A stretch of 64,000 nt of DNA, from NCBI RefSeq assembly GCF_037042905.1, contig NC_087245.1, positions 33,792,001 through 33,856,000 on the forward strand, in the 5' to 3' direction. Shown piece after piece: positions 6,331 through 63,412 of this stretch. The DNA is from Lytechinus pictus. Taxonomy: Eukaryota. The notes beneath the pieces are model-generated. The model searched no databases and was not told where the DNA came from. It worked only from the letters and a program-made list of their open reading frames with translations. How positions within the stretch are numbered: position 1 is the first letter of the stretch; each line of letters starts with the position of its first letter. The position numbers were made by a program, and so were the translations under genes.

Positions 6331-7640
6331 GTCTTCTAAAGATTGTCCGCTGTTCAGTCATGCGTGCAGGGGATCAAATGAAAAAGGTACCTGAATGTAC
6401 TGGGAGGATACCTCTATCAAGACATATCATGAAACTAATGATTAAATATTCATATTTTAAACAATTCAACTTTACAAAAGTGGGACATTTTCTTGGTCGC
6501 GGCAAGATTCACGTCAGCAACGATGACTGAACGATCGGAAGGATACCCAGACATTATACATGTTATACGAACAGATGAAATGATATCGTCTATTCTTCTT
6601 GTCAGGATCAAGTCCAACGTGTGACCACCCCGATGGGTCGGCCCATTCACGTGTTGAAAGAAGCTCAACGAATCGATGGAGTATATGAAGGACTTGGCCT
6701 GGGAGTCGTTCACATCGTCAATGTGGATGTTGAAATCAAGAATTATGGGTATATTTTCTGAAATTCCTGCAGTCTCAAGAAGGGTAAGAAACTCCTTCAG
6801 GAACATACTAAAGGTGAACTTGTTGCGTGCTGAAGATGGAGGCCTGTATTCTGCATAGCATCTCAAAACTGATCCTACGGAGAATCGGATAGTAACATCC
6901 ATGAGTTCAAAACTTTTAAAATCAGTCCTATTATTCAAGGTCACTGTCACCGAAGAGCGATACAAAATGCAGATCCCACCTCCTTTGGTTTCAAGGCGAG
7001 GGCAATGCAGAAAATTATAATTCGGAAGTGTGGACTTGATATCACCGATAACCAGATCATCTCTTTGGTTTCCTGATAACCAATATTCTGTCAGGACAAG
7101 GACATCCAATTCATTGTCCATAATCATATCACATATACTTGTAGTCTTATTTGACATGGAATGAGCATTCAAAACGCCAATATGTGAATAGCTTTGCTTA
7201 TAAGGACGAGGGAATCCAACAGGAGATCGCCGACGGACATAATGATCACTTGGATGAGTAGGAGTTTCAATCCAAAACGTTTCAACACGGGGAATTGCAA
7301 ACTTTCTAGCGGTGCGTCCACCTCGTGTACCCCTTTTAGTTTACGGGCGATGTCCCAAGTTTCCAATAGATCCCATTCATCGCGAGAGAATGGCATTAGA
7401 CGACCATGACATTGGGAAGAAACGCTCTGTCCAATACTCAATAGCTCTTCGCGAGAGTAGTTAATCCTTGTCATGGTGTATGAACACAGCATAAATCACG
7501 GCAAGGGTGTATAAGACATAACAATCAAATTTGATGAAAATGGACCCTAACCCCTTTTGCAAGTGAGATCTTCATATATACATATATATATATGTACATA
7601 TATACATATATATATATGCATATATATATATATGTATATA

Positions 7641-9455
7641 CAGTGCGTCCCAAAAAAAACTATACACTTTTGAAATGGCTGCCAAATAAAAGATTTAGCA
7701 CTTTGGGGTAAAAGACTTATAGATATGGAAAGCCAATATAGTCAACTTTCAAATGACACCAAAAAGTTGAAAAACTATTCATGCTTGAGCGAGTACTGCC
7801 CACTGAAACAAAGGGTATGAAAATTAGGGTGGGCCGGAATTAGCCTTCCAATTTCTCTCAGGTTTTTTTGTTTGATACTTGCAAAGTTGAGGGTTATTTG
7901 GTGAATAAGAGATCAGATGTGATCAGATTGTTGTTTGTGAAAATGTAGTGCATTATTAAATTGAAATGTAATGCATGAGTGATCATGAATTGCAATTTTT
8001 AGTGCGGCATTTTGTCTTTATCATGTGGATCTCAACAATGTATTCATGACAGTCAGAAGAGGGGGGTAATATGACTTACATGTAGGTAGGTGAAGTACGT
8101 TGATGGTATAACGGTCAACAGAACATTTAGCAACCCCTCCCTCCATCTCTACCCCCTCCCCCCACTTCTTGAGAGACTAAGCTTGACTAGGCTGGGCAGG
8201 AATTAGCCTTACAATTTTTTTGAGAGGTTAGTCCTTTGGAACTTACAAAGCTAAGGGTGTTCTGCTATTTATGAGTGAGATAAGGTTTGGTTTCTTAGGC
8301 AAATTTCATTAGTTACTAAATTGAAATGTTATGCATGAGTGAACAGGAATTGTAATTTTAGTGTAGCATATTCATCTTGTGGACCTCAGAAGTGTATTCG
8401 TGAGAGTCAGATTAATGTGATGGTACATGTTACAAGCAACAGGCCGAGATATGCTAACTTGCTAAGACTTGGTTAAAAGGGCATTCCTCTTCATTTTGTC
8501 CTTTTACAAATTAAAAGTCATATGTACCCTCCCCTCTCCACCTCCATTTCCCAGCCCCCCCCTCTCTCTCTCTCTTTCTCTGTCTCATTTCATGGATTGT
8601 AGCCTATTCAAAACTTAACTGCCAAGTGACCGGTGGCTGATGGTCAGTTTTTTTTATTTAATGATTACCAAGAAATTTAATGATTATGGTGATTAATGAA
8701 GTAATTTATTGAAAAAACGAATGTTTGATTGGTCACATTGCACATTGAATGAGTTGATTTACTGATGAATTGTTGATTGAATGATTGATAGGAAAAAGTT
8801 GATGCCCCAATTCAGAATTAATCATTAAATCAACATTCTGCTCTGGACTTCACTTGTACATGACAATAGCCATCAGTCTCTCAACAGGAGGTGAGGGCGG
8901 GAAAGAGGGAGGGGGCGGGGGCTGAATGTTCTGTTGACCCTTGTTCCATCAACCTACTTCTCCCACTTAAGTCCTATCCCCCCCTATTCTTCCGACACCC
9001 ATGAACACATTGCTGATATCCACATAATAAAGTTGAAATGCTGCCCCAAAAGAGATCCAAATGATAAAGTTGAAATGCTGCCCAGAAAGTGTAATTTATG
9101 TTCACTCATGCATTAAAGTTCAATTTAATAATTTAAAAAAATTGCTTAAGCAACCAAAACTGGTCACGGTTGATCATTAATTTATCACAACGCCCTTAAC
9201 TTTGCAAGTTCGAAAGGATTTGCCTCTCAAAAACTGACATAAGTTGGAAGGCTAATTCCAGCCCACCCTAATTTTCATACCCTTTGTTTCAGTGGGCAGT
9301 GCTCGCTCAAGCATGAATAGTTTTCCAACTTTTTGGTGTTATTTAAAAGTTGACTTTATTGGCTTTCTATATATGTAAGTCTTTTTCCCCCAAAGTGCTA
9401 CATTTTTTATTTGGCAGCCATTTCAAAAGTGTATAGTTTTTTTTGGGACGCACTG
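7641..9455. mobile_element. Non-autonomous Tc1/mariner-type element
   Basis: TIRs of about 200 bp starting CAGTGCGTCCCAAAAAAAACTATACACTTTTGAAATGG; flanked by TA inside (TA)n. Confidence 0.9.
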
Positions 9456-9479
9456 TATATATATATATATATGTATGTG

Positions 9480-12400
9480 TTCTCACTTGCAAAAGGGGTT
9501 AGGTCCATTTTCATTTAATTTGATTTTTATGTCTTAATGTATAGAGTTTTACTAGCTCTATAAGATTTTTTTCTTTTATCCTCTTAATCGAGGTATTTAT
9601 TGACAATAACATGTACATATATATACAAACATAAAAAAAAAATTAATTCACTTCAATAATGCAATAATTTTTTGAATATCACATTTTTTCAAAATTCCGA
9701 ACTTGCTTTTTTGTTTACATAAACTTTCTAAATAAATAATCATAGTAAGCTTGAATTCAATCCATAAAGAATTCGCATCATATCTTTTTCCTTTAAATAT
9801 GCTTTTTATGTAATTTCGATAAATAACAAATTGAGCAATAACACAAAATAAATTACACATAACATTGCTGGAACTTTGCAGATCATAACCTATGATTAAT
9901 GTTTTTTCATCTATAGAAATAGTAATCTTAAAAATATAAAATACCAACCTTTCTATAATCTTCCAAAAAAATCGAACATATTTACAATACAGTATGAAAT
10001 GAAAAGTGGTATCAACTTCTCCACAAATGTTACATGAGTTGTTTTCTACTACATGCCACTTAAATAAATTGTCTCTTGAGGGTAAAATCTTGTTCAAAAA
10101 TTTAAAACTAAATTGTCTAATTCTATTATCCACAATTAAATGCAACTTAAAATGAAATACATGGTTCCAACTAAAGGAAAATGGTAATGAAAAAAGATTA
10201 GACCAAAAAGAAACAATGCCTGGTTTTTCCGATACCTCCGAACATAATAAAGAATATATCTTTCTTGTTGGTAAATAATCTAGAGTTATTTGTTCTCCAC
10301 TTTTTAATGAAATTACGATTCGTTCACTTTTTTTTAATTCGAGTGGATAATTTTCCTTTAACAACTTATTCAACCAATAAACAGGAAAAGACTTTATTAA
10401 TTTAGCATATTCTTAATCAAATAAAAGCTGAGAAGAATAGACAGATTTATTTAAAATATTTGGTGCTAACCACTGACGATTTCTTATAACATCTTTTACC
10501 CTAATTATACCTGCATGCTTCCATTTCTCAAATACCAACATACGTTTATTAAAAGTAATATTGCTGTTATTCCAAATGATTTCATTTTCAATGTTTTTTA
10601 CTCCGAATATACCAATATATCTTAACTTAGACCAGCTACAAAAAAAATCATGGTAAAAACTAGGTATATTTGCTTTTGTACAAAGAAAATTCATATCTTT
10701 TGTTGATATATTGTATTCAAAACATAAAGGAATTTCACCAATCTTTGATAACCAATAATTAAAAAGAAATTTCCAACTACGTTCGCCTTGCTCTAACAAC
10801 TTGCTTATCCACGAAATCTTAAGCGATTCAATTTTCGATTCCAAGTGGACCATACCAAGACCACCTTCGTTTGTTTTATTTATACAAACATTTCTTTTAA
10901 CCTTTTCTTTTGAAGAATTCCAAATAAAAGTATATAACATTTTATTTAGAGATTTGATTACTTTCTGGGGAACTCTAATCACTTTTGCAGGATACACAAT
11001 TTGAGACAACAACAAAGTTTTGATGATAATAATTTTTCCGAAAAATGTTAGATTTCTTAGTTTCCATACTCTAATAATATTTTGTATCTTATCTAGTTTA
11101 TTTTGCCAATTATAATCTTCAACATCTTTCTCATTTTTCCCAACATATATACCTAAATATTTTATCGGTTCTTCAGTACATTCTATTTGTCCGGGGACAA
11201 TATCAATATTAAGCTTCAGCAGCTTGGTTTTTTGCAAATTAATCCTTGGCCCAGCATTTGAACCAAATAGTATTAATTCTTCCATCAAAATAGAAAGAGA
11301 ATTTTTATTTTTCATAAATATAGTTGTGTCATCTGCAAATTGGGATATTTTTACTTCTACTTGATCATCACTCATCTGCGAAATCGGTAAACTGAGACCT
11401 TCAATTTTATGATTCTGTTTAATTTTCGTCGCCAAAACTTCTGCAACAATAATAAAAAGTAGTGATGAGAGGGGGCACCCCTGCCTTACACCTCTTTTAA
11501 TTTGAAAAGTTTCAGAGATCCAGCCATGATTTAACACACGGCCTTTTGCGTTTTTATACATCGATTGAATCCACCGAATGAATGAATTTCCAAAATTTAA
11601 TCTTTTTAAAAGGTAAAATTGAAAATTATAAATTATGTTGTCATAGGCTTTTTCAAAATCCAGAAACATAATTATGCCCGGGGCTTTTATGCCCTGATAA
11701 TAATAAATTATATCTTGCACCAGACTTATATTTTCGGCTGAAGACCTTTCTCTAATAAAACCACTTTGATCGGGAGATACAATGCTCGTTATTACATTTT
11801 GTAGTCGTTTGGCAAGAACTTGTGCAAGAATTTTGTAATCAACATTTAGGATTGATATTGGTCTCCAGTTATGAATGATATTTTTATTTCCTTTTTTAAA
11901 CAATAACGCCAACATGGCCATGTTTTGACTTGGAGATAATTGCTGCTTTCTATGTCCTTCATTTAAACTGTTCATTAACATTTCTTTTAGCTTGCTCCAA
12001 AAGCATTTATAAAACTCGGCTGTGAGGCCGTCGCTACCTGCTGATGTATTATTCTGCATTCTTGACAGAGCCTCAGCACATTCCTTTTCGGTTATATCAC
12101 CTTCACAACTCGATGCTTCATTATCATTTAGGATTTGTATATTTGTATGAAATAAATATATTTCGTACTCCAAATCACTAATAGAATTAAGGTCTTTATA
12201 TAAATCATCATAATATTTACGTAATCTCTGTAATATTTTCACCTTATCGGTGATGGTTTTACCGTTGTGTTCTAGGCAATCAACTTCTTTCTTTTTTCCG
12301 TTTCTTTTTTCAAGGCCAAGAAAGTACTTTGTTCATTTTTCATCTTCCTCCATCCACTTCTCTCTCGATCTTATGTAAGCTCCTTTACATTTATAATTAT

Positions 12401-25164: not shown

Positions 25165-28100
25165 CATCAACAGATAAAGTGGCAAGAGTGTTAAGTTTAT
25201 CTCTTACAAATCCAAACTCGCTCGGCGTAAATTAAAAGGATCTAAAGTAGTAGTATTAGAGGACTTGACGAAAAGGAACGCCAATTCGCTATCACAAATG
25301 AAAAAGTACGTTCGGCCTGGACAATGGATGGAAGAATATTTGCCTTAATCAAAACAACAAATGGCAAAGAAATACGTAAACTCATTACATCTCACACCGC
25401 TCTGTCAAACTTGTAGTCACAGGACTTTGAAATTTTGTAGTCCCAATTTGCTGACACTAATAATCATCTACATGTATAATCTATGTAATCTACATCAATA
25501 TTCTGCATCTGAAGGTTATTTTTACCTTGAATCACTGCATCCATGTATTGTTTGTACATGTATGTTATGAGCTTTGATATTTATTGATAATTTTGTATAC
25601 ATACATGTATACATGTATACATGTATATATTTACATGTATATCAATATCAATATGTATATATCAATCCACATCTATCAATATCAATATTTTTGCACAGGT
25701 TGTGTGACCTTGATCCAGTACATTCATGTACCGTTAATTGTTTGTTTGTTCTTTAACATGTATAGTATAGTATAGTATTTATTTTTCCGATCCAGAATAC
25801 ATAAAAAACAAGACAAATAATACCTATATAAGAGTGAGAGAAACAACAAAATGGAATCGGCTGGATAACCCATATTGAGCTGTGCCAGGCACGACACTGC
25901 TGGTCTTCCATGGGGTCCAGAAAAGAAGCTAATTAAAACTGTTATATTTACAAGCAAATAAAAAATAAATAAATAAAAGGATATGAGTGTACACGAGTAA
26001 TCTATATAATCTAAACGATAAAAGACATGATCATAACTATGCTAGCAATATAATAAAAAGGTGATTGTTAATAACATAATGATTACACATAATACAAATA
26101 AACAATAATCAGATGACCAAAAAAAAAAAAAAAAAGGGACAACCCCGACACCCGCCCCCCCCCCCCCGGGACAGAATGGGCCTATAGTTTTAGAAATCCC
26201 AAAGTTGAAAATTATGTAAGGTGAGACGTTGCGTCTAATGTCATAAGGCAATTTTTGAAAGCATGTAAATTTGTTGCAGATCGGGCACAAGCAGGAAGAT
26301 TATTATATAAGCTGGCGCCTCTATATTCAAAAGTTCTTTTCAAGAATTCAGTATTAGGTTTAAGAGTACATAACTTGTCTCCAAAGCGTAAGTTATACCC
26401 GTGAGTAGATGTTTTAAAACAGTCTGAAATGTAAATCGGGGTCATTTTATTTAGTGATTTAAACATATAAATTAGCAAGTGTTTGTTTCTTCTGGTATAA
26501 AGGGTGTTCCAATCAAGGGCATTGTGGATTTCAGAATTGGATGTGCGAGATGAACGATTTATATATAAAATTAAACGACCAGCGCGGTTTTGGAGTTTTT
26601 GAAGTCTTTCCGTTAGGTATTTACTGGCCGATCCATAAATAATATCTCCATAATCAAAGTGGGGAAGAATAATAGTTTTATAAATGAGTTTGAGAATAGT
26701 TTCGTTTAGAAAGCTTCTTAACTTACCAAGAAATCCAACCATTTGACCTATCTTTTTGATCATTTTATCAATATGAGTATTCCATTTGATTTGGTCGTCA
26801 CAAATTACACCTAAGTATTTAACATCATTAACCTGTTTGATTTTGTTCGTGCCTGGATTTACATTCAGGCATTTGTCTTTTGACAACATATGACGACTGC
26901 CAATTAACATGCAGACTGTTTTTTCGTAGTTAACACTTAATCTATTTTCAGTCATCCATTGATTTAAAATAAGTAGATCGCTGTTTGAAGTAGATTCAAT
27001 TTCATGGACTGAGGCATTGCAATAATATAGTACTGTATCGTCAGCGTACAATTTTAGTTTACTTGACTTTATTTTGATGCTAAGGTCGTTAACATATATG
27101 ATAAATAAAAGCGGCCCTAATAATGATCCTTGTGGGACCCCACATGAGATGACTTTGGTAGATGAAAGAGAGTGATTAACGAGTGTTTGACATGTTCTAC
27201 CGGTTAAATATATGCCTGTGAGGCGCATGATAATATTGTATTTACATCTGTACATCAATATCTACTTGCATATCAACACCGATAAAATCCATGTACATCA
27301 ATAACTACATCGACATGTATATCAATATTTTAAGCCTGAGGTTATATTTATTGATTGTACTGTATTTACATTTATCTATCTATATCAACATTTTTGCATC
27401 CAGTACATCTTTCTATTGGTTGTTTATGCTTTACGCCCTTGAGGTATGAATTTTATTGATAGCACTGTATTTACATCTGTACATCAATATATACATGTAT
27501 ATCAACACCAACATCAACATGTACATCAATATCTACATCTATCAAATATCAATATTTATTGCATATGTTTGACCTTGATCCAATACACCTTTGCATTGTT
27601 TGCTTGTACTCATATGCCTTTGAGGTATGTTATTCATTGACTGTATTGTATTTACATTAATCTACATCAACAGCTACATGTATATCAAAACCAATACCCA
27701 TGTACCTCAACATTTACATCTATCAATATCAATCAAGTGCATCCTCGTATTGTTTGTTTGTTCTTGATTGCATTGTACCTACATTTATCTACATCAATAT
27801 ATCAACACCAATTTTTACATACATCAATATCTATATCTTTATCAATATTTTCTTCATATGTTAAAACGCTGTTTTACAGTGTACCTTGAACCAGTATATA
27901 CTTGTAATGTTTGTTTGTACTTACATGTCTTTGAGGTATTATATTTATTGATATGTACATTTATCTACATTAACAAAATGTATATCAATACCATCTGTAC
28001 ATCAATATCCACATCTATCTACATCAATATTTTTGCATCCAGCACATTCTATTGGTTATTTGTGCTTTATGCCTTTGAGATATGATATTTATTGATAGTA

Positions 28101-31100
28101 GTGTGTTTAAACTTATCTACATCAATATTTACATGTATTTCAGCACTAATATCCATGCACATCAATATCCACATATAAATATCAATATTTTTTGCATTTA
28201 ATGCGTGTTTGATCTTGATGAGGTACATTGTATTATTTGTTTGTACTTACATGTATACATGCCTTTTGAGGTATGATATTTATTTATAGTATTGCATTTA
28301 CATTCATCTACATTAATATCTCTGCATACTTTATCAACACCAATATCCATGTACATCAATATCTACATGTATATCGATATTCTTGCACAATATATTAAAA
28401 GGCTGTTTGACCTTGATCCAGTACATCCTTGTATTTGATTGTACAATATATGCCTTATATATCAGTGTATTTCAAAACTGTATACATGCAATAATAGTAT
28501 TGCGTTATTGCAAGCTGTGTATGTTATTTCCAGAAGATTGGACAGTCTTATTGATAGTTCCTTTTAAAAAAAAAATATTTTGCAGATTCTAGTCTTATTT
28601 TTGAAAAGACACGTTGTTATAATTCCTATTTTCCATGTTATGTTCCTTATAATTCTGCATTTTTTTTCTTTAAACAAGATTGTTATCTTCAACTGTTGTT
28701 GCCCCCCTCGTAGTTAGGTGTTATTTGATATCTTCTTTTTTTCTTCTTCCTTTCTTTGACTTCTGTTTACGTACCTACATTTACATGTCTAGCCGTACAC
28801 CATGTTGTACTTGTGAAGTTATATGTGACCGAAACCATAGTCAAGCTGATTTATCTGATTTTATATGTTCCATTTGCAATGGAAAATCTTTCCTTTTAAC
28901 CATATTATTGAAGATGATGAGTTTTTATGGGCACTTCAACAGGCATATGCTAATTTTCAAAATCTTAAAATTAATCCTTTTGTAATGCATAATAACCTTG
29001 AAGACGTTCATTATTCCCTCAATCTACATGCACAATCTTCTGTAGAAGATATTTCAGAGGATGAGACATTTCAATTTCCAAAAAATCCATGTTCATATTA
29101 TCTTCCTGATGATTTTTGTACTAAATATAGTAACTCTGATGATAGACTATCTCTATTACACTTAAATGCTAGGAGTCTCTGCTCACATTTTAGTAAACTT
29201 GAGGAGTTACTGACTTCCCTTGATTTTAGCTTTTCTGTTATAGGAATATCAGAAACTTGGCTGAATTATTTCATGTTAACGTCTATCTATAATATATCTA
29301 ATTACTCATTTGTGCACACATGTCGTGATTCCAGGCCTGGTGGGGGTGTTGCCTTGTATATTTCCGAAAACGTTGAATTCCTTGAAAGACCAGACCTGAC
29401 TGTAAATAATTCATTCCTTCAAACTATTTTTATTGAAATTGTCAATGTCAACTCTAAGAATATAAATGTTGGAAATGTCTATAGACCTCCCAATACTGAA
29501 ATTGACTCGTTTTTACATGATATGGATTCTCTGCTTTCTCATATACACAATGAAAAAAAAATACTATACTTAATGGGAGATTACAATATCAATTTGTTAA
29601 ATACTGATAGTCACACAAAAAGCATAGAGTTTGCTGATACTATGTTCTCATACAATTTATTCCCAGTAATCACCAAGCCTACACGCATATCATATAAATC
29701 TGCTACCATAATATATTTTTACAAATGCAATCCAATTTGAATATGAAAGTGGGCTACTATATTCTGACATTTCAGATAATTTCCCAATATTTTATGTTGC
29801 AAAAAAATTTAATAATCAATTTCAAGGGAACCCCGTCTGAGGAGAATGATAAATGATGCTGGGATCGATTGCTTAAAAAAGAAATTGATCTGTCTAGACT
29901 GGAAACCAATCTATGCATCCAACGATGTCAACCATGCATAATATGATCTGTTTTACTTAATTTTTTTATGATGCCTATAATGAATGTCTTCCTACTGTTA
30001 ACAGTAAAAAAACAAAACACGATTCCACAAACCATGGATTTCTTCTGGCATCATGAAATCTATAAACAAAAAAATATCCTATATAAAAATTTTCATAGAT
30101 ACTCTGGACCAGAAAAGATTAAAAAAAGGAAAGAAGAAAAATACAAAAGCTATAAAAATTGTTTGGTAAAACTAATTCGGTTTGCTAAAAGAGAATATTA
30201 TAATAAAAAATTTAACACCTTAAGAGGTAACATGAATAAAACATGGAAAGAAATCAATAAAATATTGGGGAAAAAAGCTCAAATTTCTCTACCGACCAAA
30301 ATGTTTTATAATAATGAATCTTTTGATACCAATCAAATGAAATCTAATTATTTCAACAGATATTTCGCAAATTTGGGCAAAAATCTTGCTCAAGTCATCC
30401 CTGACTGCGACACAGACTTCATGTCTTTTTTAGGAAACAACAATATTCATTCAATGTTTTTTTAAACCAACCAATATAAATGAAATACTAAAGATCGGCT
30501 CCTTCTTGAAATTAACGTTTTCCTGTGGCTCTGATGATATTATCCCATCTATTGTGAAAAAATGTATTTATCAATGTGTCCATTAGGAAACAACAATATT
30601 CATTCAATGTTTTTTTAAACCAACCAATATAAATGAAATACTAAAGATCTGCTCCTTCTTGAAATTAACGTTTTCCTGTGGCTCTGATGATAATAATATC
30701 CCATCTATTGTGAAAAAATGTATTTATCAATGTGTCCATCCACTGTCATGACTGTGTCATATATAATATGTCTCTTGAATATGGTGAAGTTCCTAATGCA
30801 TTTAAAATAGCTAAAATTATTCCAATTTTCAAAAAGGGTGACCGTAAAGACATTGTTAATTATAGACCAATTTCTGTTTTACCCATCTTCTCAAAGATAC
30901 TAGAAAAAATAGTTTTTGAACGTTTGTACAGCTTTTTGAATCATAACAATATATTAATCTCACAACAATTTGGTTTTCGTAAAAATTACTCAACGTATAT
31001 GCCAATATTTCACATGTATGATCGTATAATGCAAGAAATAGATAAGGGTAATCTCACTATTGGTATATTTTTGGATCTCTCGAAAGCATTTGACACCGTT

Positions 31101-32531
31101 GACCATGACATACTTCTTTAAAAAAAAAGAAACATTATGGAATAAGAGGTCTCGCTCTTGATTGGTTTGATAATTATTGATCGAATCGCATGCAGTATGT
31201 TGTGGTCAACGGTGTCAAGTCAACTTTCAGTCATGTATCACACGGCGTTCCGCAAGGGTCCGTCCTCGGCCCCTTGCTTTTCCTTTTGTATATCAATGAC
31301 CTTGTGAATTGTTCCTCAATTCTTAATTTCATACTCTTTGCTGATGATACCAGTATCACTCTTTCTCAAAAAATATTATTCCTCTCATTAACACCATAAA
31401 TATTGAACTTCATAAAGTCGTCGTCTGGCTTCAATGCAATAAACTGTCACTGAACCTTGAAAAAACTAAATTTTTACTATTTAAAACACAAACTAAAAAA
31501 ATTGGTACTGACATTCCTCCAGTTATTATGGATGGCAAGATTATTTCCCAGGTATCAAATATCAATTTTTTAGGTATCAAGATAAATGAATTTCTATCCT
31601 GGAAACCTCATATTGATGATTTATGCACTCGTTTATCAAAAAGTACTGGTGTCCTCCGCAAACTAAAGTTTATTTTACCCAGACATGTATTAATTTCACT
31701 ATATAATACTTTGGTTTTATCCCATCTCACTTATTGCTGTATGTTATGGGGGAATGGATTCAAAACACATTTACATAGATTATTTCTTATTAAAAAAAGG
31801 TTAATAAGAACAGTTTGTAATGCACACTTCAATAGTCACACAAACAAGTTATTTCTCGATTGTAAAATATTGAAAATTTGTGACTTGGCTCTTATGTATA
31901 CTTATATATTATGTACAATTACCATTCAAATCTCTTGCCAAATATTTTTAATAATCTCTTCAACACAAATGCCTCTTACCATTCATACTTTACGCGTCAT
32001 TCAGCAGATCTTCACTAATATCTTCCAAAAACTTAAATTACCCCAAATTCTCTACGTTGTAGAGGAATCAAGTTCTGGAATGATTTAAATAATGATATTA
32101 AACAAAGTAAAACCCTAAATAAGTTTAAAAAACTTTTGAAAGTTCAATTTTTCTCTCAGTATAAAAACTCCTGCCAATAGCACGCTGTAGGTCACTATCA
32201 TTTATAATTATTACTTCTAGTTTGCTTGTTTGTTTATTTCCCCTATATTAGCCCATTGTTTCTTTTTTCTCTCTTTTTTTTTTATTGTATTTCAATTTTA
32301 TTTTTTGTTCACTCTTTATGTATGTCTTATATTTATTTGTATTTAAATGTATCATGGTGGTGCCCCACCCACAAGTTTTTTTTTATATGAAAACTTCCAG
32401 GGGCTCCCAATCCCATGTTTTTATCTAATTTGTATATACCTGTATTTTTATGATTGATTGATTGAAAAAAAAATTGAATTGAATTGAAAATTGAAAAAAA
32501 TTGCATTAAATTGAATTGAATTAAATTGAAT
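25165..32531 (+). mobile_element. CR1-group LINE: ORF1 C-terminus, long repeat spacer, frameshifted ORF2 (APE + RT), 3' UTR
   Basis: ORF1 remnant RRKLKGSKVVVLEDLT...WTMDGRIF; ORF2 motifs [68 protein letters not shown]; (TTGAA)n tail; absent from the paralog at 63531-63547. Confidence 0.9.
25761..27210 (-). mobile_element. 5'-truncated CR1-group LINE nested in the spacer of the larger LINE
   Basis: Open RT C-terminal half (CGVPQGSLLGPLLFIIYVNDL, LYADDT, YRGASLYNNLP); AATAAA and (ATACT)n tail. Confidence 0.9.
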
Positions 32532-46291: not shown

Positions 46292-46674
46292 TACTTCTCT
46301 TTTTATACATATAAATATTTTATACATATAAATATATATATATACACACACAAACACCCTCACACGCATACCCGCTCACACACACGCACACATGTATATA
46401 TGGTTTTCTTTCGGCACTATTGCTTTTATAGGGGAAATAAATTAGTTCAAATTATTCACCATATTTGCTAGTACAATGTAACACTGGGGTAGGTGTATTT
46501 ATAGATGATAATGTCATTGATATGCTTAGGCCCATAGTTGATTCATTTGAATAAACTTACGGTGGACATCACCTTTAATTATAACTACCTACAGCTCCCA
46601 CGTGATCTGATGGACTCGGCGACTCTTTAGTGGTAATAAAATATTATGAAATAAGTAGCATTATATTTGCTTAC

Positions 46675-46785
46675 CTCTGAGAAGTGACTCCTTATTTTGA
46701 AGGTAGTGGTTTGGGCGCAAGATTGATAATTCGTTAATGTTGAAAACCCGTCCTTAGCTCCAGATGAGCGACGTTGCTTTGATTT
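46675..46785 (-). CDS. Exon B of the VPS9-domain gene, right copy
   Basis: CTAG acceptor and GTAAGC donor; 111 nt open; phase 0 joins exon C. Confidence 0.75.
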
Positions 46786-47025
46786 CTAGTATAAGCATAT
46801 ATAATTAGGAAACGTCACTCTTATTCAATGATATACAAATTCTCATTTACTGTAAGAATGAAAAAAAATGTAGTCATAGTCTTAAAAAAGTCTTAAAGTT
46901 GGAAAATGGTATCATTAAAATATTAGTAAGTTGCGCTTTCAAGTGAAAGTTTTGATTGTTGCAGGTGCTACATGTTATTTAAAAATGGCCCTTTCATCTA
47001 GTTACTTTTACTTACATTGTTTTGA

Positions 47026-47383
47026 ATAATAATAGTAATAATAATAATCCGCATTTATATAGCGCTAAACACATCGGAACGACGTCTCTAATCGCTTTGC
47101 AGAAATAATATTATCACCCCGGTCATCGGATCCTTGCATGCCCGCATATAATGTATGTACCTTCTCCACTCCCTGGGGAGCATTCCAACAAGAGTTCCAA
47201 GACCAATTGCTAAACGTACTACATAGGCTTTCGCATCATACCGGGTACCCATTTAACACCTGGGTGGAGAGTGGCAAATTGTAGATTGACGCCTTGCCAA
47301 AGGACGCTAGGCCATGGTGGGATTCGATCTCACGACCCTCTGATTACAAGGCAAGAGTCAGAACCGCTACACCACGGCGCTTC
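47026..47383 (-). mobile_element. tRNA-derived SINE (paralog of 572-927)
   Basis: Same sequence with the B box mutated to GAGATCGAATC; insertion predates the duplication. Confidence 0.85.
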
Positions 47384-48181
47384 CAAAGAAAATAATGTAA
47401 ATTTTAGAATTAAAATGCATTGTATTTCTTCCATTTTCCCTTCTCAAAGGAAAAGGAACGAAGGGGGAGAAAGGGAAGGGAAAAGGGAAAGGGAGAGATA
47501 AGGATAAGGGAAGAAAGGAGGGGGAAAAGAAGAAAAGGGAAGGGAGAAAAAAGTGAAAAATATAAAAGGAAAGGAAGGGGAATGCGAGAGAAAAACAGAA
47601 GAAAAAGAAGGGAGATGGGAAAGAAAAGGAAGGGGAAAAGAGAGAAAGAAAAAAGGGGAGAGAAAAAGAAAAGGATATAGCGAAAAAGAAAAGAGGGAGA
47701 AGAAAATTTTCAGGCGAGAGAAAAGAGAAGGAAAAGGTAGAGAGAGAAAAGGAAGGGAAAAGAAGAGAAGGAAAAAAAAGAAAAGGGAAAGGGGAAGGAA
47801 TGGATACGAGTAGAAAAAAGGGAGAAGAAAGGGGACGAAAAAATAGAAAGTGAAGGAAAAGATAGGAATGGGATAAGAAAAAGTGGAAGAGAAAGGGAAA
47901 TGAAAAGAGGAAAGGGACAAATAAAGATGGGAAGAAAGATGCCCAAGGAGGAGAAGACCCCCCCCCAAAAAAAAATATATATATATATAGACTTGAAACT
48001 CAAACTGTTGACTTGAATCTCGAAATTTAGACTTGAAACTCGAACTGTTGGCTTGAAACTCCTAAGTTAGACTTGAACTTGAAATTTAGACATGAAACTC
48101 GAACTTTTGACTTGAAACTCAAAATGCAGACTCGAAACGCGAAGAAATAAAACACTTTCAGAACTGAATCACCCAACTTAC

Positions 48182-48358
48182 CAGCCTTGGTCTCGGTGTA
48201 GTATGTTCGGAGAGAAAGTTTATTGAGGTTTGATTGCATGTATCCAGCACTTCAAGAATCAGAGAATGATGTGCCATCTTCATCGTGATATCGCTCCGCA
48301 ATTTCTTCACCAAAGTGTAAAAATAAGAAACAGGTTTTTGCTTTTGAGCTTACAGTTT
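48182..48358 (-). pseudogene. Exon A, right copy, with a +1 frameshift
   Basis: TTTAG acceptor and GTAAGT donor; 177 nt vs 176 nt in the paralog; extra base in the T5 run at 48335-48339. Confidence 0.7.
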
Positions 48359-48849
48359 CTAAAGATATAAAATGTACGTGTTTGGAAAATGAAGAAAAAA
48401 AAATCAGTGATTATCTGAGTCTTAATTGTTATTTAGAGGTCCGATTTTAACCAGGTTTTTGCGATGCCTGTCTATCCGAGTCAAAATTGATGAATGTAAA
48501 TTGTATTGGGTTGCTTCATCCTAATGATACTATCGATTCAGCTTTTGTAACAACATTTTACACCTATAATTCATAGTAACCACATAATTTATGTAGTAAT
48601 TTTCAAAATAATTTGAGAGCTGGTACGATATTAAATGAACTTGTCCTATTTGCATGACAGATTTCATGGGTCTATATTGTATTATGTAGGCATTGAGGGG
48701 ATGGAAGGGAGAGTATACTAGATTGTCGAAATCTGTGGGGGAGATGCCTTATCCCTCATCAAAATAGTCAACCGCTGTGTATACCCGTATATAAAAACAC
48801 GAGTTTTGGATTAAAAAAAGAACAATGAAATTGATATCCATGCGGCCCC

Positions 48850-48889
<40 letters not shown>

Positions 48890-48894
<5 letters not shown>

Positions 48895-49292
48895 AAAGTT
48901 ATACATGTACAACAGCTTTGGCAACTCTTTTATTTAAATATTGTAAAGAAATGGATGAAGAGAACAATGGTAGGCGTAGCTTAAATCAAGGTTCCCCAGA
49001 GCTATCTACCCTTTGGAAAAATTGGTGATGCCGAAAAAATGTCCCTGCCGGGACAATAGGATCTGACAATAGGATCTATCTGACGGTCAATAGGATCGGG
49101 GTCGCCCTAGCCACTAACCCGTCTCTGTGGTCTAGTGGTTAAGGCACCGGCGTTCAAAGCTGGGGGCCCGGGTTCGATTCCCGGCAGGGACATTTTTTCG
49201 GCATCACCAATTTTTCCAAAGGGTAGATAGCTCTGGGGAACCTTGATTTAAGCTACGCCTACCATTGTTCTCTTCATCCATTTCTTTACAAT
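48890..49292. mobile_element. tRNA-carrying non-autonomous element, copy A (inverted arms around a tRNA gene)
   Basis: 48939-49051 is the reverse complement of 49180-49292; flanked by (TA)n; absent from the unit 1 paralog. Confidence 0.85.
49121..49192 (+). tRNA. tRNA-like gene with TCA anticodon (opal-suppressor type), short variable loop
   Basis: Cloverleaf GTCTCTG/CAGGGAC, GTCT/AGGC, CCGGC-GTTCAAA-GCTGG, CCGGG-TTCGATT-CCCGG; A and B boxes; T6 immediately downstream. Confidence 0.75.
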
Positions 49293-49354
49293 ATATATAT
49301 ATATATATATATAGATAGATATATATATATATATATATATAGAAATTTTCCTCA

Positions 49355-49413
49355 CCTCTGGTCTACCAATGGTTTCGCGCCTCGATCACAGGCGGCTCAT
49401 CAGGACACTGAAG
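49355..49413 (-). ncRNA. Type I hammerhead ribozyme (3' pLTR)
   Basis: GTC-CTGATGA-GCCGCCT...AGGCGC-GAAAC-CATTG-GTA-GAC on the minus strand. Confidence 0.85.
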
Positions 49414-49636
49414 CTAGTTGGATTTGGTGGGGGCCCACGGTTGGGGCAATGGATGCATTTCACGGTCCGGCGGTTCTTTGTTCCTTCTTTTGTGACGGCA
49501 TGTACTGATTAGTTCGGACCTTCGGTTGAGTGAGTTTTTCTTGTGAGTTGCGATAATGAGTTTTTCGTCTAAGCATAGGTTGCAGATTCCACTTCCCCGC
49601 ATTGCCAAGTTGGATTTTTTCATTATTGCCCATTTT

Positions 49637-50196
49637 CCCGGGGGGGCCACTTCCATTCACGAGTGGATACCATGCGCGACCATGGGGTCTCAAAAAGCAC
49701 CCTAAACACGTAATTTCCATATTCTGAGAATGCACCCCTTAACAAGTATTGGCGTCTAAAACCCTACCCTTAACAAGTATTGGAAATAAAACGATACTCT
49801 TGGCAAATATTTCCTGAAATGAACCCCTAAACAAGTACAGGAATGTTTTATTGTTACGGGTCCTTCGGTCTTCGTCTTTAATTTATTTGGTTTAGTACGA
49901 CCCCACCTTCTAACACCTCGCGCAAATCGGACTCTAAAGTCTAAACACGAAGTGTTGGGGCAAAAAGGACATCCTTTATAAAACATTTTAATTTTGTTTT
50001 ATCATCCCCGCAAATTCGACCCTAAACACGTAATTTTCCTAGCGAAATAGATACCCTTTTTTCATTATTTTTGTGATTTTGACACCCTTATCACGTTACG
50101 TACGTAACGTGCCCTATCGTGAAAAAGACATCCTTTTTACGTGTTTTTTTTGGTCGCGCATGGTATCCACTCGTCAATGTAAGTGGCCCCCCCGGG
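49637..50196. mobile_element. MITE with CCCGGGGGGGCCACTT TIR inserted in the PLE endonuclease
   Basis: Imperfect TIRs of about 45 bp; 8-bp TSD CCCATTTT (49629-49636 and 50197-50204); removal restores YNLKWAIMKK. Confidence 0.92.
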
Positions 50197-50910
50197 CCCA
50201 TTTTAAATTGTATCGTTCCCCTTTCTTTTGTAGATCCCATATGTATTTAGATAGTTCTGTTTCGTTTTGGTATTTCTCGTTTCGGAAAGATTTTGTGTGG
50301 TTTCTGAATCTTTCTTTAAAAGTTCCCCCTGCTAGGCCAAAATACACTTTGGTGATTGCATCTCTTTGGCCGTGCGTGACAGATGCTTTGTATATTATCG
50401 ACTTGGCCAGGCAGTTTCCCCGTAGAGGGCAGTCTTCCTTTACTCGGCAGTTGCATGTTTTTTCCGGAGGGTTCTCTTCTTCTTTTGATTTTCTGATGAC
50501 TTTTTCGTTGTGTGATTTGATGATCGCATTTACGTTTTTCATGCAGCTGTAGCTAATTTTTACAGTATTTTTGTTAAAAATCTTGTGCAGTTTGTGTCCC
50601 TTGGGGAAATGCTTTTCGACTAGGTTGATGAATTTTCCCCCGATGTTGGTTTTGACATTACTGCTGTAGGGTGGGTTGAACCACGTGACGTTTCTTTGGC
50701 GTTTTTTCCTGGTTTTGTTGGGCTTTTGGTTTTTGGCGAATTCGATGTCACCATGGTAACCGCTGTTGCTCAGGGCTTCCTTGTATACCGGTGCTGCGGT
50801 CTTGAATTTTTCTTCATTTGAAGATAGGGATGAGATTCTTGTTTGTACTGATGTGGGAATTTGCTTCGTGATATATATATAAATACATATATAGATATAT
50901 ATCCAACTAG

Positions 50911-50969
50911 CTTCAGTGTCCTGATGAGCCGCCTGTGATCGAGGCGCGAAACCATTGGTAGACCAGAGG
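50911..50969 (+). ncRNA. Type I hammerhead ribozyme (inverted 5' pLTR)
   Basis: CTGATGA at 50921-50927, stem II, GAAA at 50948-50951, GTA cleavage triplet at 50958-50960, stem I GTC/GAC. Confidence 0.85.
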
Positions 50970-51048
50970 TGAGGAAAATTTCTACAACGCTCTGCTTCAG
51001 TTGAAACATCGAGCACTTTCCCTGAACTTGATACATCCCACTTTAATT

Positions 51049-51084
<36 letters not shown>

Positions 51085-51332
51085 AAAGAAATGGATGAAG
51101 AGAACAATGGTAGGCGTAGCTTAAATCAAGGTTCCCCAGAGCTATCTACCCTTCGGAAAAATTGGTAATGCCGAAAAAATGTCCCTGCCGGGAATCGAAC
51201 CATCGAACCCATGGCGGCTTGTCATTGTTCGAAACCCACCTTCACCCGACAAAGGAAATTATAATTGGTATAGTGTCGAAAATTTGTCTATCTGACGGTC
51301 AATCGGATCGGGGTCGCCCTAGCCACTGACCC

Positions 51333-51404
51333 GTCTCTGTGGTCTAGTGGTTAAGGCACCGGCGTTCAAAGCTGGGGGCCCGGGTTCGATTCCCGGCAGG
51401 GACA
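51333..51404 (+). tRNA. tRNA-like gene, TCA anticodon (copy 2)
   Basis: Identical to 49121-49192; followed by T6. Confidence 0.75.
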
Positions 51405-51738
51405 TTTTTTCGGCATTACCAATTTTTCCGAAGGGTAGATAGCTCTGGGGAACCTTGATTTAAGCTACGCCTACCATTGTTCTCTTCATCCATTTCTTTA
51501 CAATATTTAAATAAAAAAGAGTTGCCAAAGCTGTTGTACATGTATAACTTTACACATTTGTATACGTTCCCCCTACGTGTACTGTATCAAAGCAATAGCT
51601 TTGATCCAGCTGAAGCATGGCGGCTTGTCATTGTTCGAAACCCACCTTCACCCGACAAAGGAAATTATAATTGGTATAGTGTCGAAAATTTGTCTATCTG
51701 ACGGTCAATCGGATCGGGGTCGCCCTAGCCACTGACCC

Positions 51739-51810
51739 GTCTCTGTGGTCTAGTGGTTAAGGCACCGGCGTTCAAAGCTGGGGGCCCGGGTTCGATTCCC
51801 GGCAGGGACA
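51739..51810 (+). tRNA. tRNA-like gene, TCA anticodon (copy 3)
   Basis: Identical to 49121-49192; followed by T6. Confidence 0.75.
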
Positions 51811-51995
51811 TTTTTTCGGCATTACCAATTTTTCCGAAGGGTAGATAGCTCTGGGGAACCTTGATTTAAGCTACGCCTACCATTGTTCTCTTCATCCATT
51901 TCTTTACAATATTTAAATAAAAAAGAGTTGCCAAAGCTGTTGTACATGTATAACTTTACACATTTATATATATATATATATATATACATGTATAT

Positions 51996-59036: not shown

Positions 59037-62000
59037 CATAGTTCATAGTTCATAATTCATTTATTACTTCCTTTCACAAAAACATTCATACATGGTAGTT
59101 AAAATAAATGATAATGGAATATATAGTAAGATAAACAAAATGATTGTCAGCGCTAAACATACATTTAGGTTGTTACATAAATCATATCATTTACATTATA
59201 GAGTAGGATTCTGGAGACAAAGGTTACACAAAATTTCACATTTTGAAAGAAAGAGGAGACCTTAAAAAAGCAAGGCTTGTCAAGACAAGGTCCCCAATAA
59301 GGATACGATAAGTGTATAGATATTTTACATACTTTGAATAAGACTACACATCTAAATCTACCTATGGAAAGAAAAGGAAAGAAGGAAAAACAGAGAGAAA
59401 TTATCAAAAATAGGAAAGAGTGAATATATATATATGACTTTATATACAAAATGAAGAGGACATAAGGACAGATAAGAGAGGGGTTATCAAATGAGGAGAA
59501 AGGGTTTATACAGTGCGTATCAAAAAATAGTTTACACTTAGAAAAAATCCTGTAAAATTATGCATTTGTAATATCCTGAAAATTTTTCCACATTTTAACA
59601 TTAGTACAGATCCATTTAAGCAAATGACGATATAACTGTCGAAAAATATTTCTGCTTGAGTGAGCACCACTTACTTTTGAAGAGTTAGTGAAAAATGATT
59701 TGCGCAGAATTTTGAAATAGTTATGCGAATTAAAGTAGACCTTAATCCTGAAGTACGCATGGAATTTAGCTAGTAAAATTGATTTGAAGATATATTTTAC
59801 CTTTTTAAACTTGTTTCCTTGCCCAAAATACTTCGAAGAGTGCATTGCGCCCCACCCCTCTCCCCCACACACCAAGGCCATCGTGACGATATTTGCTTTA
59901 CACTGATCTGTGATTTACATGGAATGCCTTAGGCTTGATTTTCATTTTGTTAATCATTGTAAAGCTTGGGAAAAGTGTGGAGAAACAAGTATTAAATGAA
60001 ATATGAAATGTAAACCCACTTTATATGATAAAAACTTAGTGAAAAAATGCTGGAGATGTTTGATATAAACTTTTGTTCAGATTCAGTTATGTCCTCAGAT
60101 CCAGCTGGCACACAAAAGGTAAGGGTTGTGCTTACTAAGCATTAAAATCTCAATTTGGGCGGCAAAGTTGTTACAAAATGCTTGAATGTATCTGTTTTAT
60201 TAATTGACTAAAAGTCCAAGGGAAATGTATGAAAAATGTTTCGCAGGGTACGTTTGATTTCGCCCTTTCCCCTTGACACAGCGTGAAAACGAGCATTTCT
60301 GCGCAATCAGATTTCTGCGAGCTTTGGACAGTGCTCATTCAAGTGTAACATTCTGTCAAAACTTTTACTTTCATTGGATAGATGAGACCCAAACCCAAGA
60401 TTATATGTGAAAAAACTACCTACATGTTGTATATTTTTTAATTCCCAGGGCTTTTTCAAAGTGTAAACTTTTTTTGATACGCACTGTATACAGGGAGAAA
60501 AGTCGTTGAGACGGCGAAGAGAGAGAGAGAGGGAGAGTTATATTGGGGAGGTGTATAAAGTTTATAAGATAAACGCCAAAAGAGGAGAGGGAAAAAGAGG
60601 TGTACAACCCAAAAAACAAAGGATTATAATAAGTAATCTATTTTATACTAAATATTTTGATGGGTTTCAGTATAAACTTTCAGCAAATGTAATTTTTAGC
60701 TTACGTTTAAAGACCGACACACTGACAGCATGAGTTACTTCAATTATGTCAATGGGAAGTGTGTTCCAAAACTTGGGACCAGTTACGGATAATGTATTCA
60801 GAGCAAAGGTAGTTCTTACCCGTGGTATATGAAGAGCAGCTGCTTGCCTTGTGTTATGATTATGAATTTGACAGTTTTTAATGAATAGTTGAGCCAATGC
60901 ATTTGGGGAAGTACCATTTTCAAAATCATACATGATTGAACCTAACTGCAAAAGATAGATATCCTCTATCTTCAATAATTTATTACTGTGAAACAAAACA
61001 TTAGTATGAGCACGATAACTAGCATGAAAATCAAGTCGAATTGTCCTTTTCTGTGCGATAAGTATCTTTTCTAATTGTGTTCTTTGTGACTTGCCCCATG
61101 CCAACACTCCGTAATTAAGATAAGGTAAAACTAGAGTAGAATATAGAATACGCAAAGTTTCTTTTGGTACAAAAGAACGTAATTTATAGATTACACCAGT
61201 ATTTTTTACATGACTTTACATACACTGTTGCAATGAGACACCTACATCTAGGTCAACTTCTCATCAATTTGTAATCCAAGAAACTTGGTGGATCTTACCC
61301 TCATAATGTCAACATTGTCAAATAATAAACCTTGTGGTAAAACTGACAGAGAATTACCAAAGAGCACATAGTTAGTTTTCTGAAGATTCAAGGACAACTT
61401 GTTTGCATCGATCCACTGAACTACATATTCCAATTTAGTGTTAACCGTTGCTGACAAGGCATTGGGATCTTTATGAGAAAAAAATAAACTCGAATCCTCA
61501 GCAAAAAATGAATGACAAAACATCAAATGACAGACTAAAATCATTTATATACAGTATGAAGAGAAGGGGGCCAAGAAGAGATCCCTGAGGGACTCCACAC
61601 GACATGGTTTAATAACTTGAGTCGGTTCCATATTACGATACATATTGTTTTCTGTCAGTTAAGTAACTCCAGAACCAACTAAGAGCTATGCCTCTAACTC
61701 CATAATTCTCTAGCTTATTAGAATTTCATGATCAACCGTATCAAAAGCTTTTGAGAAATACAAGAAAATGCCTATCGTGTGGTGATGGTTATCTAAAGAT
61801 CGAGCCACTTTATCAACGAAATTCAGTATAGCATGGGTAGTGGTATGTTTTTCACGAAACCCAAACTGGTATTTTGAAAGTATTTCAGTCTTTTTGAAAA
61901 AGGTTTCTGTTCTATTTTATACAAGTTTTTCCAAAATGTTTGAGAAAGATATCAATAATGAAATTAGTCTATAATTACTGACTTTGAGGATCACCCTTTT

Positions 62001-63412
62001 TAAAAATTGGCACCACTTTAACAAATTTCATTCGTTTTGGCACAATGCCAGATGTGAAAGATAGATTGAAAATGTGTACAAGGGGACTCACAATACCATG
62101 CCCAATATCTTTAATCAGCTCATTTCTAATACCATAAAACCTAAGACTCTTATTGCTTTTCAGCGAGGTCACAAGTTCCAACAGTTTAACTTCATGTGTT
62201 GGCAGTAAAAACAGACTTTCTGTATTTGTCTCTTGCATGGAATTACGAAAGTTCTTCATCTGACATCTAGGGATAGACTCCTGAAGTTTCAGCCCAACAT
62301 TGAAAAAGAAATCATTAAACTTTTCAATTTGCCTATCTTTCACCGAACAACCATTTACATTAATACATTCAATATTGATAGTTTTTATGGGCGATTTAAA
62401 AATACTTCTGATTACTTTCCAAGTAATTTTAATATTTTTGAATGTCATCTGAAAACGAGCAGAATAATATTGTTTCTTAATAGTACGTAATAAAGAGGCA
62501 AGGATGTGTTTATAATTAGCATATTTTCTTCTATTTGAATCAGAACTCCTCTTTTTATATTGATAGTGTAATTTGGTTTTCTATTTGATAGACGTTAATA
62601 TAGGCATACGTGGAACTTTATTTTAGTTATTCTTCTTATATTCAACTAGTGGAACATTCTCATCATAGAGCTACATAAATTTACTGAAGAAATTTTCAAA
62701 GGCGTTTTCAATCATTCCAATTTGTTGTTAGTAGAGCTTCTCTCAAATAAGCAACATTTTCTGGAGTACTTCTGCGCACAGCTTTCCTGTCTTTGGGTTT
62801 ACAATGTGGTCTTCCTAAAGGCAAATTACAATATACAGGAAAGTGGTCTGATATGTCAGATACTATTATCCCATAGATATGGTTGCACATTACAAAAATA
62901 TTGTCAATCAAAGTACTTGAAACCTCTGTGATTCTGGTTTGTCTAGTGATAAGGGGCAGTAGGGAGAAGGACATTAGTATATTCAGGAAAAGATCAACTT
63001 GAGGTTCACTATTACAAAGTAAGAGGTTCAGATTATAATCTCCCATAAGATACACTGATTTTCCAACTAAAAGTGGATTGTTCAGTACGGACTGGAGTTC
63101 ATTTATGATATCATTAAAGTTTGAATTTGGAGGCCTGTATACCACAACTATAATCTGATTCTTTTTGCCAGAGTTATCGATCTCAACAAAAACAGTTTCT
63201 AGCTGATCAGACATAATATTAAGGTCCTGATGAACCTGGTGCTCTATTTGGGAAGGGATATACAGAGCAACGCCTCCCCCTCATTTGCTCGTCCGATTAT
63301 TATTTACAAGATTATAACCAGAAATTGTAAAAAGATTCCTTTCAACTTAACTGAAAAACCATGTTTCAGTGATACCAAGTGTTACCAATCCTGTACCACT
63401 ATTCTCAACAAA
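59037..63412 (-). mobile_element. CR1-group LINE, 5'-truncated in the endonuclease, degenerate
   Basis: VYRPPN, MGDYNLNLL, TLIDNIF, SDHFPV, KVVPIFKKGD, GVPQGSLLGPLLF, TGPKFWNTLP; (AACTATG)n tail; empty site ATTACATTTGAGCAGTC at 25041-25057. Confidence 0.9.
59511..60486. mobile_element. Tc1/mariner-type MITE nested in the LINE 3' UTR
   Basis: TIR CAGTGCGTATCAAAAAA(T/A)AGTTTACACTT; TA TSD. Confidence 0.9.

Follow-up and report, generated by a model that had tools for sequence, protein, structure and literature searches.

The window, a stretch of 64,000 nucleotides of Lytechinus pictus DNA, contains three UCA cloverleaves on the forward strand. ARAGORN, Rfam and sequence comparison place them at 49121–49192, 51333–51404 and 51739–51810 (hereafter copies 1, 2 and 3). 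They are identical and each is 72 nt long. Read from the sequence, the stems have a 7/4/5/5 layout in which 21 of 21 pairs form, three of them G-U. The anticodon loop carries G32, U33 and A37 (TCA lies at 49154–49156 in copy 1), and the variable loop has 4 nt. A and B boxes are present, and a T6 tract directly follows A73 (49193–49198, 51405–51410 and 51811–51816, respectively). A preliminary description of the locus had given the same pairing, loop bases, promoter boxes, terminator and identity between copies, and each of these observations stands.

ARAGORN typed all three cloverleaves as tRNA-SeC(tca). In tRNA-Sec, a long variable arm accompanies a 9/4 acceptor/T stack. The module shares UCA at positions 34–36 with tRNA-Sec and opal suppressor tRNAs. 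Unlike them, it lacks a long variable arm, has a 7/5 stack, carries G32 and varies in anticodon between lineages. Each copy scores as an ordinary tRNA (RF00005, 58.9 bits; cut-off 29). Hence, given this score, the 4-nt variable loop and the 7/5 stack, we reject a tRNA-Sec identity, as the preliminary description did. That description also likened the D and T arms to tRNA-Glu. The D-loop and T-arm do match host Glu(CTC) but they match Gly(TCC) equally, and Gly(TCC) is closer overall (in-register identity of 49–53 of 72 positions, versus 44–45 of 72 for Glu(CTC); four host tRNAs were compared, a set that did not extend to Glu(TTC), Trp or Gly(GCC)). A register shift from Glu is a possible origin, but Gly(TCC) is the better in-register fit. 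The module probably derives from Gly(TCC), judging by these identities. Given that Gly(TCC) is the closest of the four, UCA would be a single change away from UCC.

All three cloverleaves lie in units of one 406-nt repeat, copies 2 and 3 in consecutive tandem units. We numbered unit positions (q) from window position 51565, which places the tRNA at q175–246. The flanks had been described as different. This proved wrong. Over 227 nt, copy 1 is 97.4% identical to copies 2 and 3, and the latter two are 99.7% identical to one another over 355 nt. Copy 1 belongs to a 5'-truncated element (49075–49301, forward strand; unit positions 129–355) that stops at the first of two 3' ends, in (TA)n. Beside it is an inverted, more truncated copy with a tail of ~52 nt, which reaches the second 3' end and faces outward into (TA)n (48882–49053, reverse strand). 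By sequence comparison, the second insertion comprises an inverted 5'-truncated copy (51071–51201, reverse strand), a partial upstream unit of the tandem (51210–51564, forward strand; positions 52–406) and a full 406-nt unit (51565–51970, forward strand). The full unit ends in (TA)n and is predicted to fold as a near-unbranched rod. No ORF was found in the 406-nt unit, the longest stop-to-stop frame being 83 aa.

Across the genome (811.7 Mb in 368 contigs searched), the tRNA core has 2,216 matches, the upstream motif 1,942 and the 3' motif 3,087, counts that take in tandem arrays. Reversed controls gave 0 matches in each case. The array on contig C2 has ~44 units, with 0–1 differences among the five full units compared. 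The unplaced contig C28 has many element matches at spacings in multiples of 406. From this spacing, C28 probably holds a very long array, larger than that of C2, that would account for the strand excess in the counts. Outside the host, relatives numbered 0 in the metagenome contigs and 0 in the viral contigs searched. Element contigs from two sequencing runs resemble the same family. Elsewhere in the window, there are two copies of a ~2.3-kb repeat containing internal tandem units of 20 nt (136–2507 and 46591–48909). They are separated by 46.4 kb, and the second stops at the (TA)n adjoining the element. Open frames at 6453–12332, 26215–32085 and 61978–62580 resemble, by eye, pieces of LINE endonuclease and reverse transcriptase (RT).

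The 5' ends of 60 copies chosen by the 3' motif are scattered. At the other side there are two fixed ends, ~52 nt apart. Among 58 copies, 24 stop at the first and 22 at the second; nine continue into the next unit and three end elsewhere. The sequence beyond the end is (TA)n or (CA)n in 46 of the 58 copies, the next unit in nine and something else in three. We counted 46 tandem pairs and 35 inverted pairs. The 5' truncation, tandems, inverted copies and (TA)n targets are read as Penelope-type insertion. The same anatomy, with partial tandems, an inverted truncated copy, a tail at one end and (TA)n targets, is described for Penelope-like elements and MRC1 (Craig et al. 2021, PMC8557442). Unlike those, the element carries a tRNA, its tail is ~52 nt and its 3' end does not clearly resemble that of an autonomous family. 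We conclude that it is, very probably, a non-autonomous Penelope-type retroelement in which the tRNA is a working part, kept for its shape rather than for decoding. The earlier suggestion that the module is borne by a transposable element is thereby upheld, since it lies inside an abundant 406-nt element with Penelope-type anatomy. Two other classes were rejected. In a MITE or foldback DNA element there would be fixed terminal inverted repeats; here there are none, the inverted arms being variable in length and often absent. For a tRNA-derived SINE, 0 of 60 copies start at tRNA +1 and 28 of 60 reach upstream of the tRNA.

The insertion pattern of the element recurs in five hammerhead-bearing Penelope-like families of this genome, one of which sits between the two insertions in the window. 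This neighbour, which lies outside the unit, is a 5'-truncated C-terminal-endonuclease Penelope-like element (49340–50866, reverse strand) with a minimal hammerhead-type motif at 49340–49423 (reverse strand). Comparison identified an inverted hammerhead-plus-tail copy of it at 50901–51050 (forward strand). Its ORF is split at 49637–50196 by a MITE-like 560-bp insert with 46-bp terminal inverted repeats. We rejected this family as the autonomous partner on finding no 3' alignment to the element, and its proteins gave no Pfam matches. More widely, the 3' ends from 50 Penelope-like loci gave no significant alignment to the element. A motif at 51847–51874 (forward strand), kept in both families of the element ~35 nt before the first 3' end, has a short resemblance by eye to the 3'-end motif of local Penelope-like families. 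Readings of this motif as a SECIS, box C'/D' or hammerhead were rejected by eye, and the sense strand has no complete hammerhead core. A short hairpin motif (GCTC...GAGCAC) is common to the five hammerhead-bearing families, ~26–39 nt before the second 3' end; it is a possible RT recognition signal. The genome has at least five C-terminal-endonuclease Penelope-like families, some with open frames of 700–810 aa. Contig C15 carries a large tandem array of Penelope-like RT copies at 1.88–2.03 Mb, with periods of ~2.8 and ~3.2 kb. A Naiad selenoprotein partner found no support in a search with one RT motif, which gave 0 exact matches and one two-mismatch match that does not lie in an RT frame. In the part of the Naiad supplement searched (PMC8557442), 0 of 5 matches to element motifs were relevant.

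The preliminary description proposed an opal suppressor that might help UGA read-through in element ORFs. Canonical geometry, promoter and terminator would suit a functional suppressor, as would the presence of UCA in 51 of 51 copies chosen by the upstream motif and in the second family described below. Among the matches listed for the tRNA core, UCA occurs in 98 of 100 copies of the young family. Such near-fixation is expected from recent copying. In one search, 21 of 49 matches were UCC copies. The 16 examined form a coherent older subfamily, 84–96% identical to the window unit, with diagnostic bases in common; three UCC copies have short insertions on the 5' side of the anticodon stem. When copies were compared, the stems covaried between families, and the anticodon was not constant.

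Decoding tRNAs keep U33, and a pyrimidine at 32 is usual in the loop. G32 is present in all lineages of the element. We surveyed the loop in 1,798 copies with exact flanks, some search patterns having fixed neighbouring bases, and found departures from G32 in 17, U33 in 22, U34 in 4, A36 in 15 and A37 in 4. A33 occurs in 16 copies at 10 sites. At four sites it is present in every copy of the insertion, indicating that A33 was already in the transposing template. Of the 22 non-U33 copies, 12 are in multi-copy insertions sharing the change, compared with 0 of 17 non-G32 copies (p 0.0002; nt 32 assigned from coordinates only). Template-borne loop changes were found at nt 33 (A, C) and nt 35 (U, wobble-compatible), and none at nt 32. 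A purine at nt 35 occurs in 10 copies; in none of the five examined is it shared inside an insertion, and these appear sporadic. A33 occurs with several different haplotypes and could mark a mutational hot spot. No in-frame TGA is common to the long open frames of the neighbouring Penelope-like families. Since an older subfamily has UCC, and copies without U33 have transposed, decoding of UGA by the module is unlikely. Helenus Sup-CTA is described as a known artefact of this type, a suppressor look-alike borne by a transposable element (PMC10886601). Given G32, UCC, template-borne A33 and partner frames without UGA, we regard a functional opal suppressor carried by the element as very improbable. 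The proposed help with read-through likewise found no support; the unit has no ORF, the neighbouring frames share no TGA and no Naiad motif matched.

A second, older family has 29 matches to its 3' motif and a unit of 402–403 nt with the layout of the first. Its tRNA is 86% identical to that of family 1, compared with 59% and 65% (~62%) outside the tRNA. Across 18 copies, 94.1% of cloverleaf cells are paired. Double-sided changes at family level occur at pairs 2-71, 6-67 and 28-42; these are three events, and related rows can beat the shuffles of the tool used. On this alignment evidence, the cloverleaf is maintained by compensatory changes despite divergence elsewhere. Among 55 family-1 copies, variants shared by at least four copies occur at 0 of 72 tRNA positions versus 14 of 265 others. 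Individual copies decay similarly inside the tRNA (0.0085) and outside (0.009–0.018). We conclude that selection acts on source lineages rather than on inserted copies. The similar decay is what a neutral tRNA relic, copied within a satellite, MITE or SINE, would produce. That explanation is already largely refuted, and very unlikely, given the compensatory stems, the 86% versus 59–65% identity and the co-evolved arms described next. A very decayed tRNA-like copy at C11:14015293 has the D-arm and variable loop of the element and may be a third, older family.

The predicted fold of the monomer is a near-unbranched rod (z −6.6 linear, −7.7 circular). Units of 406 and 403 nt (families 1 and 2) have a GC content of 0.43–0.44 and fold z-scores of −7.3 and −5.7. 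In the fold, a 5' arm (51614–51738, forward strand) runs antisense to both the tRNA and the 3' arm. The anticodon arm alone is skipped and is predicted to stay exposed. Family 2 forms the same predicted rod from different helix sequences. Predicted energies are −136.8 and −127.4 kcal/mol for native monomers and −108.9 and −107.7 for arm chimeras, so that an arm swap costs 18–29 kcal/mol. This loss argues that the arms co-evolved. Two families with one predicted rod and, on this modelling, co-evolved arms are new here. The sense strand folds better than the antisense strand. The excess of G-U over A-C in the rod (10:8 and 14:8) is not significant, and DNA-level homogenisation of a palindrome is compatible with that test. 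RNAalifold on the 18 copies recovered the central rod alone, the 8 family-2 rows being partial or out of register. On the same alignment the family-1 rod is 86.9% paired, and 29 of 500 shuffles match its count of double-changed pairs.

In both families, tRNA +1 is predicted to lie in the tip loop of the rod, with an internal loop after A73. Again by prediction, the far end of the rod holds both 3' ends, in AT-rich loops. The cloverleaf is predicted only with a short leader and is absent with a leader of at least 10 nt (family 1) or 20 nt (family 2). These positions bear on whether RNase P and/or RNase Z, or an anticodon nuclease, cuts the cloverleaf and a ligase closes the monomers. The constraint on the cloverleaf and the loops at +1 and after A73 fit such cutting. 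The leader limit does not, and P plus Z together would strip the tRNA from the template, yet copies carry the tRNA. Moreover, 0 of 60 ends are at +1; five of 60 fall within q243–250, near the RNase Z site, among scattered ends. We therefore judge this route improbable. The preliminary description had raised the idea of a Pol III promoter and processing module that cuts multimers. The idea comes close to the model developed below, whereas its RNase P/Z version is unsupported (0 of 60 ends at +1).

We folded a transcript that starts at tRNA n and stops at the T6 of n+1. Without constraints, an outer acceptor stem forms; n contributes its D arm (weak in family 2) and n+1 its T arm, and the rod lies between the two. 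Hence, the composite RNA is predicted to be one tRNA with an exact monomer as an insert at 37/38. The outer acceptor formed in 30 of 30 real tandems but also in 20 of 20 shuffled spacers, and its probability was rejected as evidence on that control. The energy difference between the composite and two local cloverleaves is more discriminating, at −23.7 and −24.3 kcal/mol for native RNAs versus −4.5 to +5.9 in 16 shuffled spacers. The composite fold is lost with a 20-nt leader or a long trailer. It would thus require that Pol III initiate the transcript and terminate it at the second T6. A T6 follows the tRNA in 119 of 137 copies.

If the anticodon arms of the two copies swap strands, nt 32–35 of each face the other, with 3-nt bulges at 36–38. 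This geometry is read from the sequence. G32 is complementary to C35 of the other copy in all lineages, with a predicted pair probability of 0.00. Swapping strands costs 2.8 and 5.9 kcal/mol relative to the minimum-energy fold, and the pairs of the bulge-helix-bulge (BHB) have P 0.00 (0.02–0.07 even with A33, which renders nt 32–35 self-complementary). G32 is one substitution, seen in two families and a subfamily; no family with a different 32/35 pair was found. Nucleotides 36 and 37, the bulge positions in the model, differ between lineages; this agrees with the splicing geometry, as do template-borne changes at nt 33 and 35 with none at nt 32. The copies with a purine at nt 35 and the occurrence of A33 on several backgrounds speak against it. 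A BHB with N32-N35 flanked by 3-nt bulges is described in PMC10275265. Human TSEN is reported to need the pair between nt 32 and the intron and to accept an inverted G32:C (PMC8479045). RtcB circularises excised introns whose ends are held together, and strengthening the helix lowers splicing, as described for tricRNAs (PMC6614914). The host has members of the TSEN and RtcB families. The putative intron-like monomer or circle begins at nt 38 of copy 2 and ends at nt 37 of copy 3 (51370–51775, forward strand; 406 nt). In its predicted fold, the ends are paired through the anticodon stem (P 1.0 and 0.77).

The repeat, its families, the constraint on it and its computed folds stand as results, whereas each enzymatic step of the following mechanism is our inference. 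Briefly, Pol III would start at tRNA n of a tandem, sometimes pass its T6 and stop at the T6 of n+1. The antisense arm, as computed, would sequester the inner halves, leaving n to supply the 5' half and n+1 the 3' half of the composite tRNA. Swapped anticodon arms, with G32-C35 pairs between copies, would give a symmetric bulge-helix-bulge. Host TSEN would then cut after nt 37 of both copies. With the ends held by the anticodon stem, as folding predicts, RtcB would close the circle. A Penelope-like RT/GIY-YIG protein could prime on (TA)n at the AT-rich loops and copy round the circle. Rolling copying would leave the truncated, tandem and inverted copies that are observed. This sequence of leaky Pol III termination, TSEN excision, RtcB circularisation and Penelope-like reverse transcription, in effect a ribozyme-free retrozyme, is the reading we prefer, tentatively, at slightly short of an even chance. 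Within it, and with the same reserve, UCA would be a tolerated change at a bulge position.

The main difficulty of the TSEN model is terminator read-through. A transcript reaching n+1 must pass one T6 plus one T5 (T4 in family 2), and four or more T residues are described as the usual termination signal of human Pol III. For Cassandra, PMC10886601 describes transcription that extends from one 5S copy into the following one even though the terminators are conserved. That precedent also serves a linear route like that of TRIMp3 elements. Here, the tRNA would be a Pol III promoter/terminator cassette and the tRNA-to-tRNA RNA itself the template. The RT would jump across the 72-nt terminal redundancy to make tandems, and the composite fold would merely bring the two ends close. 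Splicing is not required, and A/B boxes and T6 are intact in both families. Within tandems, neighbouring units disagree at 20 of 527 diagnostic sites, compared with 28.3% for random pairs, and the linear route accounts for such shared haplotypes. It leaves unexplained G32, the exact gap at the anticodon arm in the antisense arm and the ~44-unit near-identical array, and 0 of 60 5' ends are at +1. On balance it is unlikely, though a serious competitor. The 5' ends of 60 copies show no pile-up at +1 or nt 38. This, with the shared haplotypes, is what a closed circle predicts; homogeneous arrays or template jumps could produce it too.

Two RNA-seq runs, both of long RNA, contained 2,050 and 1,438 element reads (about a quarter of each run was covered). 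Mates were equal in both directions, and 41% and 59% of element reads enter unlike flanks. No piled read ends were found in the two runs, where reads across a circle junction and a tandem junction are indistinguishable. The reads look like passive read-through and are equally compatible with the presence or absence of a small circular RNA. A further reading needs no specific cut. Pol II read-through of arrays would be the template, rod and cloverleaf would serve stability or RT binding, and the tRNA would mainly open chromatin. Reads entering host flanks in both directions, the long homogeneous arrays and templates crossing +1 all suit this. However, the cloverleaf never forms in such RNA, leaving the acceptor-stem covariation unexplained, and the many haplotypes would each require their own array. 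We consider this reading quite improbable.

Among the closest known systems are the metazoan non-LTR retrozymes, for which RtcB circles and Penelope-like mobilisation are proposed (Cervera and de la Pena 2020, PMC7229834). Like them, as described there, the element is small, non-coding, tandem and below 45% GC, with a self-paired monomer and dimers to multimers. Its 406/403-nt units (GC 0.43–0.44) fall within the 150–450-nt class. As reported for plant retrozymes in the same paper, the complementary strand masks the processing module. Unlike metazoan retrozymes, the element has no hammerhead. A tRNA module takes its place, so that cutting would need a host enzyme. No complete type I hammerhead core was found on the sense strand of the unit. 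An Rfam scan to E 10 found no ribozyme in the unit; the same scan missed the hammerhead-type motif of the neighbour. The element resembles the TRIMp3 elements Cassandra, Helenus and Ajax (Kojima 2024, PMC10886601) in its internal Pol III small-RNA gene, its proposed copy-to-copy transcript and its false suppressor calls. It differs in lacking an LTR, a PBS and a short target duplication, and in having a rod fold and a full cloverleaf under pairing constraint. Searches of the element found no LTR pair and no site complementary to its own tRNA end, the one candidate primer examined.

Intron-containing pre-tRNAs and tricRNA precursors (PMC6614914, PMC8479045 and PMC10275265) are described with an insert at 37/38, nt 32 pairing with the third-last base of the intron, a weak helix middle and circularisation by RtcB. 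In our model, the element would share each of these features. Unlike those RNAs, its proposed intron is 406 nt, arises only from a tandem and holds both exons permuted. The element may mimic an intron-containing pre-tRNA. It would be a self-perpetuating mobile tricRNA with a viroid-like rod, in which tRNA splicing replaces the retrozyme hammerhead. We put this forward with a little more caution than the mechanism itself. The literature searched, with most subscription journals and Repbase outside it, held no precedent for excision of a mobile element by tRNA splicing or for a mobile tricRNA. If true, this would be a categorically new route to mobile circular RNA, one that parasitises tRNA splicing. 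It would also make a protein-free system of 406 nt in which to ask whether circular templates give rise to Penelope-type tandems and pseudo-LTRs, and it would offer a natural design for building long tricRNAs.

Even if the model fails, the element is one short RNA under double structural constraint, rod plus cloverleaf, and it explains ~2,200 false tRNA-Sec or suppressor calls in this genome. Among host tRNA genes, a cluster at C12:26.78–26.82 Mb contains tRNA-Pro(TGG), tRNA-Ile(AAT) and Pro-bodied tRNAs with a TCG (Arg) anticodon, a possible anticodon shift. At C13:22.08–22.16 Mb, near-identical host tRNA-Gly(TCC) genes are interspersed with variable tRNA-Asn copies.
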